A stretch of DNA of 64,000 nt from Sedimentisphaerales bacterium (GTDB taxonomy: Bacteria > Planctomycetota > Phycisphaerae > Sedimentisphaerales > Anaerobacaceae): NCBI GenBank assembly GCA_030611315.1, contig JAUWPZ010000001.1, positions 8,640 through 72,639 of the forward strand, written 5' to 3'. Both the position numbers and the translations under genes were made by a program. The notes below the pieces were generated by a model. It saw nothing but the letters and a program-made list of their open reading frames with translations. It did not search any database and was not told the origin of the DNA. This document shows, one piece after another, positions 42,731 through 56,523 of this stretch (its first letter is position 1; each line of letters opens with the position of its first letter).

Positions 42731-43183
42731 GGCGTGTCAAAATACTACAATCATAGCCAATTAGCAAGCAGCTTTAGTAAAATGCGGTGCACTAAATTAC
42801 AGCACAGAAAGGGGCATGGTGTGGTGGTTGTAATAATATAGAATATAGTAAAGAAATATTAGTATTGGTAGTAGTATAGCTTGTTATTTTGTGATATCCT
42901 GAGCAAAGCAGCGAGCTAAGCCCTTTTCTGGTAGTGGGTTAGAGAATAGGGATGTTAGAAGTTTTCTGTGCGCAAGCTGTGAGGTTGGCGGTGAAATTAT
43001 CCGGGGAAAGTAACAACCAGTTGGCCCGCTGAATTTTGCCTGTTAACTTCTATGTAACTTAACACATATATCACAAGATTTTCTGGCGCGTGTGACTACG
43101 TATCAGGAACAATAGCCGCCTTTGATATTGGAAATCCGCAGGCTCTGGAGGTTAAATTTCCTTGGCTCTTTAAAAAAATAAAC

Positions 43184-43213
43184 TTGACAGCTTAGTTAAG
43201 CAGGCAACAATAT
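43184..43213 (+). promoter_or_regulatory. Putative marR promoter with embedded inverted repeat (candidate operator)
   Basis: TTGACA lies at 43184-43189, with a CAATAT-like -10 about 18 nt downstream. The inverted repeat GCTTA-GT-TAAGC (43190-43201) sits in the spacer. Confidence 0.45.
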
Positions 43214-43251
43214 ACATACGAACAATATAAAAATGAAACAAGGAGACCAGG

Positions 43252-52131: not shown

Positions 52132-52911
52132 TCAGACCTCAAGCTCGTCAACAATCTCGGCCAGCCGGTCAACGGCTGCATAGACCGATTCGAACGCACT
52201 TGCCGTTTCGGTTTCACTCAGGCTGGCCTTCTCGTGCCGCCACTTTCCTGCGGTCCTCAGAGAATCCGTATCGACTGAAAATTCATCCGCTGCTTTACTG
52301 AAGGTCGCCTCGGCTGTCTTGGGCCGCTCGATATCTTTGAGCCAAAGCATCGCACGCAGCAGCGGCACCAGCCCCTTTGCCGTAGAGATAAGAATGTCGC
52401 GTACGATTTTCTTGTTGGCCGATGCGGCAATATACCCCTGCCTTAATCTGATGAGCGTGGCCTTTAACTCACGCTCGCATTGAAGGCGGACGTCTTTTTT
52501 ATCAAAGCTCAGTGCGGCAAAAGGGTCCTCGCCCAATATCGTCTCGTGGTTTAGCTGAAAGTCCAGCAGCTCGACGCCGAATACGTCGCGTGACCGTTCG
52601 ATGTAAGATTTCGTCATAAGCACCGGCGGCGAAATCCTCTTTCTGCTCATTGGCCTGGTCAGAGAAGCGATAGGCCTGAGCGAATCCAGCCTTTGCCTGC
52701 CGAGGACGACGACGGTATTGATATCGCTGCCGGCCTTGAAATCCTCCGTCAGGCTGCTGCCGACTACCGTAATACTCTCCAGATTCTCGCCCAGCTCTTC
52801 TTTGAGCTTCTCCGCAAAGGCCTTTACTCGTTCGCGGACCTCAGCACGCAAAGCATCTAATTTCAGAGTTTTTTTGTTATCAGTCATCTCATTTACCCCA
52901 TGGCTCTTCAA
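52132..52911 (-). CDS. Nucleotidyltransferase-fold protein with degenerate catalytic motif
   Basis: VVGSSLTEDFKAGSDINTVVV carries a GS motif, but it reads SDIN where DxD is expected. A helical C-terminal domain follows. Confidence 0.5.
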   Translation of the reverse strand: MKSHGVNEMTDNKKTLKLDALRAEVRERVKAFAEKLKEELGENLESITVVGSSLTEDFKAGSDINTVVVLGRQRLDSLRPIASLTRPMSRKRISPPVLMTKSYIERSRDVFGVELLDFQLNHETILGEDPFAALSFDKKDVRLQCERELKATLIRLRQGYIAASANKKIVRDILISTAKGLVPLLRAMLWLKDIERPKTAEATFSKAADEFSVDTDSLRTAGKWRHEKASLSETETASAFESVYAAVDRLAEIVDELEV

Positions 52912-53813: not shown

Positions 53814-54232
53814 AACTCTTGCTCCTAACTGTCAAATAAACCGGTCGATTATGCCCGGCACGTAACTCGTTATGCACCACGTTCTGCCTCCGGTACTCTG
53901 CATAATATAACAGTTTGCCTGAATAGTCCAGGTTGTAAAAAAACGAATTCATCGCAGCAAAGCTTCTCTTCCGTCCCGGCAATCCGCCCCCGGCAGAAAG
54001 CGGCTCTTTGGCATAGATTTTTGCCGCAACCGACGTTTCGGACTGCGACACCGGGGTCCGGCATTATGTTGTTTGCCTTTTTTATCGGCTGGTCCCATAA
54101 AAAGATAAAGTTTTTCGACTTTCTTTGCCGAATAGTAGGAAGGGTACTTACCCTTTAACAACGCTGAAAAGGCGTTTTGCTACAGCGAAAAGGGGTTTTT
54201 CAAGCTGTCGTTTTAGAGGCTGGAGTTAAACT

Positions 54233-55510
54233 ATGAGAACCGTAGCGATTGTCAATCAAAAAGGTGGTTGTGGCAAGACGACTGTATCGATAAACCTGGC
54301 CAGCGCCCTTGCCGGCTTGGGCCAGAAGATACTGCTCGTCGATATGGATCCGCAGTCCCATTGTGCGGTTGGCCTTGCCGTGCCCGAAGAGCAGATTGAG
54401 CAGAGCATCTACGATGTACTGATAAGCAGAAGCAGAAACGAGCCGATTAGGCTGGCGGAAATGCTTTGGCAGATCAGCGACAAGCTGGAGCTGGCGCCTG
54501 CAAGCATAGACCTTTCTGCGTTCGAGCAGCAGATGGCCGGACTTGCCGAACGTGAGAGTTGCTTGAAAAATGTCCTGGACGAAGTAAAGAGCGAATATGA
54601 CTACGCAATAGTCGATTGCCCTCCCGCCGTGGGGCTGCTGACCTTCAATGCTTTAAGAGCGGCCACCGATGTTATCGTCCCCGTCGAGACCGGCTACTTT
54701 GCCCTCCACGGGCTCAGCAAGCAGCTCGAAACCTTGAGCATACTTTGCAAACGATGCACGCAGCAAGTCGATGTCAGGGTCCTGGCGAGTATGTATGATA
54801 TAAGGACAAAGATGGCACGGGAGATTCTGGCGGAATTGCGAGACCACTTCTCCGACATAATGTACGATACAATCGTTAATTTCAATACTAAAATCAAAGA
54901 GGCCTCCAGCTTCGGCCAGCCCATCAGCGAATACGATTCCGCCAGCAAAGGCCGGAAGGATTTTCAGGCACTGGCCGAAGAAATTTTAGGCTCACAGGCC
55001 GAACAGCAGCGCCATGAAATCGTCAACTCACTGGCAGGCCAGCTCGAATCCATCAGCGCCACCGCCGATGAGCTGCTGCAGGCGGCGAAAACTCCTATAC
55101 AAGGCGTTCCTGCCCCGCAACAAACAGAGCAGCCAATCCCAACGGAACAACCAATCCCAGTACAGGACATCAAAACCCGGAATCCTGAAGAACCGGAGCC
55201 TGTAAGTATCGACACCAAGCTGTCCGAGTATTACGGCGTCAACCAGATGAATGATGCCGTGGTGTTCGTAACGCTCTACCCGCGAGCCGAGAGCGTGCAG
55301 ATTGCCGGCGACTTTAATAATTGGCAGCCGTTACATACGCAGATGCACAAGGTGGGCAGCGGCGGCGTCTGGCAGACGAAGATAAAGCTCCCTCAGGGCA
55401 AATATCGCTATCGGCTGGTTGTTGACGGCCAGTGGCAGCAGGATCCGTATAATGAAATGGCCGAATTGAATCCATTCGGCGGATTTAACTCGGTCGTCGA
55501 GGTAAAATAA
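54233..55510 (+). CDS. ParA/Soj-like ATPase fused to C-terminal CBM48/AMPK-beta-like glycogen-binding domain
   Basis: The N-terminus has the deviant Walker A NQKGGCGKTT. The C-terminal ~85 aa read VVFVTLYP.AESVQIAGDFNNWQP..M.K...GVWQTKIKLPQGKYRYRLVVDGQWQQDPYN. Confidence 0.75.
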   Translation: MRTVAIVNQKGGCGKTTVSINLASALAGLGQKILLVDMDPQSHCAVGLAVPEEQIEQSIYDVLISRSRNEPIRLAEMLWQISDKLELAPASIDLSAFEQQMAGLAERESCLKNVLDEVKSEYDYAIVDCPPAVGLLTFNALRAATDVIVPVETGYFALHGLSKQLETLSILCKRCTQQVDVRVLASMYDIRTKMAREILAELRDHFSDIMYDTIVNFNTKIKEASSFGQPISEYDSASKGRKDFQALAEEILGSQAEQQRHEIVNSLAGQLESISATADELLQAAKTPIQGVPAPQQTEQPIPTEQPIPVQDIKTRNPEEPEPVSIDTKLSEYYGVNQMNDAVVFVTLYPRAESVQIAGDFNNWQPLHTQMHKVGSGGVWQTKIKLPQGKYRYRLVVDGQWQQDPYNEMAELNPFGGFNSVVEVK

Positions 55511-55552: not shown

Positions 55553-55833
55553 CAAATCCGTGGCGTTTTCAGCCTCTTTTCCATCCATTTGGTGTATTCT
55601 GCTCTGCTAAAAAATGAACGCCCGAAGCCTTTTGTCCGATTTCCAGCGGCTCTCTGTCCTTTATTTTTTTATTTTTTGCTTTACAAAAGCGTCCGATAAG
55701 GTTATAATTCCCCACTGCATAAACCTGATTTTCGGAAAATCTGGACATTATGCTGCGCCCACAGGAGGAGTTCTGTGCCCTGTGAAAACATGAATTAGAC
55801 TTGTGGGTCTTGTACGTAAGGATTGAGGGTTGG

Positions 55834-56523
55834 ATGAGAATGGACGCTCGCGCTCGAAAATGGATTTTTGTAGTTGTTGCCATCGTGGTTGGTGTTGGTT
55901 CTGCTGTTTTTGCCGGCTCGGTCAATATTTATCGCAGTAACTTCGACCTGCTCATTCCCTCGCCGGATGACCCGAATAGCCAGTTCGGTAAGGGCCGGAT
56001 GACCGACGCTGTAATAGAGGTCCCCGACTCCTTTTTAATCCGGGATGTTGATGTCGTCGTCGCTCTAACGCACGAGAGTTTTTTCGACCTGGAGATTATC
56101 CTTCAAAGCCCTGACGGGACGAATGTACTCTTAAATCCCGCTGGCAATTTGGCATTCCTCGTGGAGGACGAAGGTGGTGGGTTTAAGCCTGTAGGCGGTT
56201 CAATTGATATGTTTTTCGATGATGAAGCCGACGTATCGATTGAGCAGGCGGCTGAACCGTTTGTCGGGCCATATAGGCCGGTTGAGGGCTTGTCCGGGTT
56301 TGACGGGGAGGAAGCTTACGGCCTCTGGCGCCTGCGGATTAACGATTGGTGGCAGGATGATATCGGCAGCCTTCAAAGAGTGGAGCTTATGATAACAATT
56401 CCGGAGCCAGCCACAGTAATACCCTTGCTCCTCGGCGCAATTCTGTTGCGTTTATACAAGAGGTGGCGCCTCCCTCCCACCACACGACCGGTATTGCCGG
56501 ATTATCACAGCTGCATCAATTAG
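55834..56523 (+). CDS. Proprotein-convertase P-domain protein with PEP-CTERM anchor
   Basis: It has a signal peptide, a P-domain-like segment ([30 protein letters not shown]), and a C-terminal [24 protein letters not shown]. Confidence 0.7.

Follow-up and report, generated by a model that had tools for sequence, protein, structure and literature searches.

A class-wide ParA-type ATPase of the Phycisphaerae with a predicted glycogen-binding module, a candidate tether between storage glucan and the nucleoid

ATPases of the ParA/MinD family position plasmids, carboxysomes (by McdAB) and chemoreceptor arrays by way of adaptor proteins, and to our knowledge all characterised positioning systems of this family use a separate adaptor that recognises the cargo. 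What, then, might a ParA do when a carbohydrate-binding module (CBM) is built into its own polypeptide chain? The question is raised by a gene of a Sedimentisphaerales bacterium of the class Phycisphaerae (Planctomycetota; assembly GCA_030611315.1). The window, that is the whole stretch of DNA analysed, comprises 64,000 nucleotides of contig JAUWPZ010000001.1 (positions 8,640 to 72,639 of the forward strand), and the gene (54233..55510, +) is listed among its open reading frames (ORFs) as a frame of 425 amino acids plus stop with an ATG start. It fuses a Soj-like ParA core to a C-terminal CBM48 module of the type found in the beta subunit of AMPK. We tentatively read the product as an ATP-switched tether that would join storage alpha-glucan, in the form of glycogen-like particles, to the nucleoid, and give this reading somewhat less than an even chance.

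By motifs and predicted fold, the N-terminal core (residues 1-252; 54233..54988, +) is a Soj-type deviant-Walker-A ParA ATPase. Pfam AAA_31 matches residues 1-179 with about 173-175 bits, and CbiA and BcsQ match over residues 1-249; no NCBIfam equivalog was reached by the protein. The deviant Walker A motif NQKGGCGKTT (residues 8-17; 54254..54283, +) contains the signature lysine K10 and the P-loop lysine K15, the Walker A' or switch motif DMDPQ occupies residues 37-41 (54341..54355, +), and Walker B, AIVDCPP, residues 125-131 (54605..54625, +). Residue conservation was counted over an alignment of 85 family members, in all of which K10, K15, D37, D39 and D128 are invariant. The cysteine in the Walker A motif (KGGCGKT) is common to the fusion and to the other Soj-type ParAs of the genome. 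Among PDB sequences the core matches 8ray (E = 4e-51), Thermus Soj (5e-43) and Helicobacter pylori Soj (HpSoj; 6e-42), and its identity to solved Soj/ParA structures is about 37-45%; the match to McdA is much weaker than that to Soj (2e-11 vs 5e-43). A full-length AlphaFold2 (AF2) model, built from a 24-sequence alignment, reached a mean predicted local distance difference test (pLDDT) score of 81, and its core superposes on the Soj structures 9a6n, 8ray, 6iub and 2bek with Foldseek target template-modelling (TM) scores of 0.86-0.92 and a root-mean-square deviation (rmsd) of about 2 A.

The ability of Soj to bind DNA without sequence preference has been assigned to a patch formed in HpSoj by K199, K227, K230 and K247, and two of its positions are covered by cited mutagenesis of R189 and R218 in Bacillus subtilis Soj (BsSoj; PMC6393308). 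Mapped through the HpSoj alignment given by the PDB sequence match, the homologous region of the fusion covers residues 196-239 (54818..54949, +). HpSoj K199 corresponds to R196, kept in 83/85 members, and K230 to K220, which is K or R in 85/85; these two retained residues are the counterparts of the mutationally proven BsSoj R189 and R218. K227 is represented by F217 (aromatic in 82/85) and K247 by A237, where mostly small residues occur, with K or R at position 239 in 76/85 (K239 here). ATP-dependent DNA binding is therefore plausible from these residues but not assured, because F217 and A237 are non-basic. The loop at the position of the ParB-peptide site of HpSoj (HCAVGLAVPE) is near-invariant in the family (H43, C44, A45, G47, L48, A49 and P51) and differs between the fusion and the paralogous ParAs. 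The region that contacts the ParB peptide is poorly conserved among ParAs (PMC11229316), so stimulation by a ParB is not judgeable from sequence.

Core and module are joined by a linker (residues 253-333) in which a helix comes first. The AF2 model places a long helix at residues 239-285, with confidence falling along it, and pLDDT drops below 50 for residues 287-325. Column conservation over the 85 sequences defines a heptad-patterned part of this helix (residues 258-286; 55004..55090, +), with V264, L267, L271, I274, A278 and L281/L282 conserved at the a/d positions; the motif is found in distant family members too, and looks like a short coiled coil or a docking helix. It is followed by a disordered tether rich in P, Q and E (residues 287-333; 55091..55231, +), in which a repeat scan found a tandem duplication of TEQPIP. 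In the family the linker is 18-194 residues long (median 100), is net negative in 68% of members and is rich in P, A, Q, S, T and E. The whole fusion is predicted to be cytoplasmic because neither a signal peptide nor a transmembrane segment can be read from its sequence.

The C-terminal module (residues 334-425; 55232..55507, +) is of the AMPK-beta type by hidden Markov models, sequence and predicted fold. It scores 51.7 bits with PF16561 AMPK1_CBM (cut-off 26.8; residues 352-425) and 41.3 bits with PF02922 CBM_48 (cut-off 22.4; residues 334-406). Its top PDB sequence matches are the CBMs of AMPK beta1 and beta2, with LSF1 and SEX4 matched as well. Modelled alone it gives a confident beta-sandwich (pLDDT 90), for which the best Foldseek matches are 1z0n/1z0m of AMPK beta1 (TM score 0.89-0.91, rmsd 1.7-1.8 A), followed by the CBM48s of branching enzymes. 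The ligand contacts of AMPK beta1 we take to be W100, K126, W133, L146 and N150, as in the 1Z0N work. Alignment with rat AMPK beta1 equates them with W364, R394, W401, F415 and N419, so that three are identical and two conservative. In the family W364, R394 and W401 are invariant (85/85), N419 is kept in 83/85 members and 84/85 have Phe or Tyr at position 415, from which alpha-glucan binding is predicted. An earlier note on this DNA, made by a model from the letters and ORF translations, had described a complete deviant-Walker-A ParA/Soj core, a linker of about 80 residues rich in Pro, Gln and Glu, and an AMPK-beta-like module; all three descriptions hold, with the linker now divided into the helix and the disordered part. 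The same note would have given up its idea had the C-terminal domain failed to score as CBM48/E-set or lacked the binding aromatics; both tryptophans are present, and both Pfam scores lie above their cut-offs.

The module is not a fast-evolving appendage, and it co-evolves with the ATPase. Mean pairwise identity in the 85-member family is 0.58 for the CBM and 0.65 for the ParA part, and the distances of the two parts are correlated with r = 0.94, at a ratio of 1.06-1.44 over most of the range. The best 120 homologues are all full length and of the same architecture, at 73-95% identity, and bear source names of Planctomycetota, Phycisphaerae or Sedimentisphaerales. With the CBM alone as query, a phylum sample gave strong matches, in frames of 400-535 residues, in 7/8 genomes of the same order and in most genomes of the same class. 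True fusions, each beginning with MRT[IV]A, were confirmed at all 13 class loci that were fetched and in one genome from outside the class (G094). A CBM scan of GTDB species representatives returned 481 relatives. The best 80 of these are nearly all from Planctomycetota, the remainder carrying labels of unclassified bacteria; they are mostly labelled Sedimentisphaerales, Phycisphaerales, Tepidisphaerales or Anaerohalosphaeraceae, with many 'uncultured Pirellulales', and 73 of them have a ParA Walker A motif in the same ORF, four are cut by contig ends and three are stand-alone CBMs. The divergent linker and CBM of G094, used as query, found two proteins only, and a spread over several phyla was not confirmed.

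The taxonomic survey that the earlier note had proposed was made on 301 Phycisphaerae genomes with completeness of at least 90%, a match being accepted at E <= 1e-12. It found the fusion class-wide and structured by lineage, in 211/301 genomes (70%), usually once per genome: in 13/14 genomes of the window's own family, in all listed genomes of families f2, f3 and f105, and in 0/4 of f4. Identity falls with kinship: it is 67-83% in the family, 46-69% in the order and 41-54% in the class. The gene thus behaves like a housekeeping gene that is near-core in the class and vertically inherited. In family f8, genome G382 (C2:374796-375332; locus L119:3258-4370) encodes a 371-residue orthologue inside the fusion clade with no detectable CBM48; its CBM may have been lost secondarily or have diverged.

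The fusion carries the only CBM48 of this genome, which therefore has no classical GlgB or GlgX. A GlgA-like synthase of the GT4/5 type lies directly before a GH57 gene on contig C174, and a GT35 phosphorylase is encoded on contig C89, so the genome plausibly makes and uses alpha-glucan. The GH57 beside the synthase has no PDB sequence match, and its assignment as branching enzyme was dropped for want of a solved relative by sequence. Closer support for a glucan link comes from the nearest stand-alone paralogues of the fusion's CBM (59% identity to it), which in 6/6 genomes examined stand third in a tight operon with the order GlgA-like GT4/5 synthase, GH57, stand-alone CBM48/AMPK1_CBM of 117-124 residues. 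The six Phycisphaerae genomes, one of them from the window's own family, carry it at L125:1913-4862 (+), L124:2097-5048 (-), L126:2093-5392 (-) and L082-L084; in the three of them for which both searches can be compared (G588, G608 and G628) the operon synthase is a second copy, and all three carry the ParA fusion. Through this position of a paralogue beside synthase and GH57, the CBM subfamily is linked by gene context to the synthesis of alpha-glucan by the cell itself, and the operon is stronger support for the link than co-occurrence, which is weak. The phyletic profile compared the fusion with the GlgA-like synthase, classical GlgA and GT35 phosphorylase; an orthologue of the GlgA-like synthase is found in 189/211 fusion carriers (90%) and in 57/90 non-carriers (63%).

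The tether that we favour would work as follows. The CBM48 would bind alpha-1,4/1,6-glucan through the canonical platform of two tryptophans, and many copies of the fusion would coat each particle through the flexible, usually acidic tether of 50-200 residues. The Soj-like cores would form ATP-sandwich dimers that bind DNA non-specifically, so that a multivalent particle could be kept on the chromosome, distributed along it and passed on with it at division; ATP hydrolysis would free and recycle the fusion protein. Glycogen binding, DNA binding, the cargo itself, and the choice between active, ratchet-like positioning and passive hitch-hiking are inferred only. A more ambitious version, which we consider quite unlikely, is a single-polypeptide ParA machine that actively spaces or partitions glycogen particles. 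In it the CBM48 would load many ATPase copies on a particle, and the HCAVGLAVPE loop and the heptad helix would stimulate the ATPase of neighbouring copies in trans, replacing an adaptor of the ParB/McdB type in a nucleoid-based Brownian ratchet.

Several points weigh against the glucan-nucleoid tether. Glycogen particles are small and numerous, which makes a need for active partition questionable. Only 2/4 positions of the Soj DNA-binding patch are basic, F217 and A237 being non-basic. The co-occurrence with the synthase has an odds ratio of about 5 and a Fisher p of about 4e-7 in a test that ignores phylogeny, and is weak. In families f6 (g9/g13) and f117 the fusion occurs where neither type of synthase is present (22 genomes), 5/22 of these also lack a detectable phosphorylase, and many fusion-less genomes have glucan genes, such as f4-g304 with a GlgA-like synthase and a phosphorylase. 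The branching activity of the GH57 is assumed, because it has no solved relative by sequence. No neighbouring gene is conserved across 80 relatives' loci, and no ATPase activator or adaptor was found among the neighbours. Finally, the sole published opinion on this architecture favours immunity (bioRxiv 10.64898/2026.10.19.760177).

Among known systems, the fusion shares with the chromosomal Soj/ParA of ParABS systems (1wcv/2bek, 6iub/8jmj, 8ray) the fold (TM score about 0.9), the Walker A, A' and B motifs and two of the four patch residues; it differs by the added C-terminal helix, disordered tether and CBM48, by Phe and Ala at the equivalents of HpSoj K227 and K247, by the lack of an adjacent parB or parS, and by membership in a separate paralogous clade. 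Like McdA of the McdA/McdB system, to which it has a structural match (6non/6nop), and like the orphan ParA/MinD ATPases of other cargo systems (ParC/ParP, PpfA, PomZ), it is a ParA-family ATPase not dedicated to DNA, and its proposed task is to distribute something cytoplasmic across the nucleoid. Its core is, however, far nearer to Soj than to McdA. All these systems have a separate, cargo-bound adaptor that stimulates the ATPase; in the fusion cargo recognition would be built in, and an adaptor encoded nearby was not found, no neighbour being kept among the 80 relatives. On the side of the CBM, the fusion has the same CBM48 sub-type, fold and sugar-contact residues as AMPK beta. It also resembles the CBM48 scaffolds (plant PTST/FLO6, LSF1 and SEX4, mammalian Stbd1 and yeast Atg45), in which a non-catalytic CBM brings another activity to glycogen or starch; plant PTST proteins even combine a coiled coil with CBM48. 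In those proteins the CBM is partnered by a kinase, phosphatase, synthase or autophagy adaptor; in the fusion its partner is a ParA ATPase, and the host is bacterial. The proposed logic, a storage granule kept on DNA for inheritance by the daughters, is that of PhaM and PhaF, histone-like or phasin proteins without ATPase that tether polyhydroxybutyrate granules to the nucleoid, whereas attachment by the fusion would be switched by nucleotide.

The closeness of the core to Soj raises another reading, that the fusion is the working chromosomal ParA of the lineage, partner of an unlinked ParB, with the CBM as an accessory anchor or buffer. A canonical ParB with an LGRGL N-peptide, KHLGRGLQSLIG, stands alone at the start of contig C133, and the three ParB_N matches of the genome all lie on other contigs, none in the window. 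The surroundings of 16 other Soj-type ParAs in relatives' loci, out to about 3.5 kb, contain no ParB; with parA and parB unlinked in 16/16 loci, synteny with parB was discarded as a marker of the 'true' chromosomal ParA. These facts suit such a role, as does the 37-45% identity of the core to solved Soj/ParA. In a maximum-likelihood tree the ParA cores form three clades. The fusion clade (support 99/97) has as its sister (92/75) the class-wide clade B, made up of conventional ParAs with an N-terminal extension; no member of clade B was detected in this genome, which also suits the chromosomal role. Against a chromosomal role, the genome has two more Soj-type ParAs, in tandem on contig C93 (8055-9784, -; 265 and 283 residues, with KGGCGKT), that score higher with AAA_31 than the fusion (about 201-203 vs about 175 bits). 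All of the 11 fusion-bearing class genomes tested have another, higher-scoring Soj-type ParA, entire families such as f4 do without the fusion, and two DNA-patch positions are lost. The internal orders of the fusion clade and its sister clade both mirror taxonomy, which points to a duplication long ago and vertical inheritance since then; the fusion is thus probably not simply the chromosomal Soj. The earlier note had named a canonical chromosomal Soj, with a ParB partner elsewhere and no polysaccharide binding, as an outcome that would count against it; the fusion proves not to be the sole Soj-type ParA and stands in its own clade, and we regard the chromosomal reading as improbable. A sensor of glycogen or energy status, in which the glycogen load sequesters or frees a Soj-like ATPase and so modulates chromosome segregation, replication initiation or the choice of the division site, seems to us unlikely, though less so. 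Soj acts on DnaA in B. subtilis and the AMPK CBM reports glycogen load. The CBM of the fusion is nearest to this regulatory module and not to enzyme-attached CBM48s, its ATPase and the chromosomal ParAs are close paralogues, the class-wide separation of parA and parB leaves the assignment of partners open, the ParB-peptide-site loop is near-invariant, and one relative has the gene at a distance of 6.5 kb from dnaN-dciA-gyrB. On the other hand, no linkage to dnaA, parB or division genes is conserved and no regulatory target is identifiable, the long flexible tether points to reach over allostery, and the same evidence suits simple tethering.

Two further explanations change the ligand or the purpose of the CBM. 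Its ligand could be other than glycogen, for instance an oligosaccharide taken up by the cell or the surface of a protein, and the ParA would then organise another cargo, for example an assembly of glucan-metabolising enzymes. In AMPK the CBM has a second docking partner in the kinase domain, the genome has no CBM48 besides that of the fusion, and some carriers lack a detected glycogen synthase, five of them also a phosphorylase; the host organisms are moreover specialised glycan degraders (PMC11266412). The exact alpha-glucan-contact residues are conserved, however, the stand-alone CBM paralogue sits in the synthase-GH57 operon and the fusion is cytoplasmic, so that this reading is about as improbable as that of the chromosomal ParA. 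A preprint of October 2026 describes a ParA with a C-terminal AMPK1_CBM as a predicted immune sensor ('ParA-CBM', ConB5), sometimes joined by a transmembrane-CBM (TM-CBM) protein or by genes for an inactive ParA and an inactive restriction endonuclease, with a phyletic analysis on 8,052 RefSeq genomes (bioRxiv 10.64898/2026.10.19.760177). The architecture is therefore not new, contrary to what the earlier note had implied. As an immune sensor-effector, the protein would use its lectin domain to sense carbohydrates linked to infection, or a depletion of polysaccharide, and trigger a multimerisation of ParA by which the invader is limited. The fusion has exactly the domain architecture described, and the out-of-class branch (G094, P0122) has a fast-evolving ParA-like companion without Walker A, as the preprint reports. 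In the Phycisphaerae clade the preprint's immune criteria beyond architecture fail: the fusion stands alone and is near-core (211/301), lineage-structured and vertical where a sporadic distribution is expected, and its CBM is slow and keeps the glucan site where rapid divergence is expected. Companion genes were found neither in the window nor in 80 relatives' loci, there is no defence island, and the neighbours are ordinary metabolic genes. For the fusion and nine neighbours PADLOC had no meaningful hit, the fusion reaching no more than 22 bits of weak P-loop noise; a defence context of the gene was rejected. Phycisphaerae are also sparse among the RefSeq genomes of the preprint. For this clade we consider an immune role very improbable, the least probable of these explanations.

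The companions themselves lie next to the fusion in G094 and P0122 (L123:8122-9105, +; L121:8237-9115, +). They are 293-328 residues long, are 28% identical to each other and appear to have a ParA-like fold without Walker A. At the N-terminus they read KLGRGIEDFIG or GRRVHDFLG, similar to the N-peptide by which ParB stimulates ParA, and the companion is therefore a possible dedicated activator or adaptor. As partner of the present fusion it was dropped, no counterpart being found in this genome or in the flanks of the family.

In the window, the gene is preceded by an intergenic region of 419 bp (53814..54232), divergent from a xylose-isomerase-like TIM-barrel gene and presumed from the ORF map to hold the promoter; a consensus scan of it gave no convincing forward promoter. 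This upstream gene and a P-domain gene downstream are common only to close relatives. The product of the latter (55801-56523, +) is small and looks secreted; it has a proprotein-convertase P-domain, and its C-terminal tail is hydrophobic and basic, resembling a PEP-CTERM sorting signal. In about 11 close relatives this gene is the downstream neighbour of the fusion. The other neighbours are a sulfatase, ThiD2/TMP-TENI, GH99, MarR, a CN-hydrolase, a thioesterase, LemA, a TPM protein, a protein with a 3-keto-disaccharide-hydrolase domain, YbaK, an extracytoplasmic function (ECF) sigma factor and an aminotransferase. A 259-residue ORF (52132-52911, -) has no Pfam match, and a weak PADLOC match to PDC-S09 (25.6 bits, residues 23-81).

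The earlier note saw no parB, centromere-like repeats or origin genes nearby, and this was borne out by scans of the window for ParB_N, parS, repeats and DnaA boxes: no parS-like site at up to three mismatches, no centromere-like repeats and neither dnaA nor dnaN were found in it. The sign of the GC skew and the gene orientation change in a 520-bp divergent spacer between a sulfatase gene (-) and a MarR gene (+) (42731-43251). An origin of replication by the gene was considered from the skew minimum and strand switch at about 42.7-43.2 kb and rejected, as there is no DnaA-box cluster; the window holds 14 DnaA-box matches vs 9 expected, none of them in this spacer. In the relative L001, 79% identical, the MarR gene abuts dnaN-dciA-gyrB, and the fusion lies about 6.5 kb from these genes (L001:8001-17275), a neighbourhood not kept in the window. 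In the present genome dnaN-dciA(-gyrB) is on another contig, C114; the region has therefore been rearranged between relatives.

We know of no dedicated system for the placement or inheritance of glycogen in bacteria. The distribution, evolutionary rate and context of the fusion argue for a glucan-linked housekeeping role in the Phycisphaerae, against the immune prediction made for the same architecture. If the tether that we favour is true, this class-wide ParA with a built-in glycogen site would be the first candidate both for adaptor-free positioning and for glycogen placement, in a compact system of one gene. Positioning, metabolic sensing or immunity would each widen the known roles of ParA ATPases.

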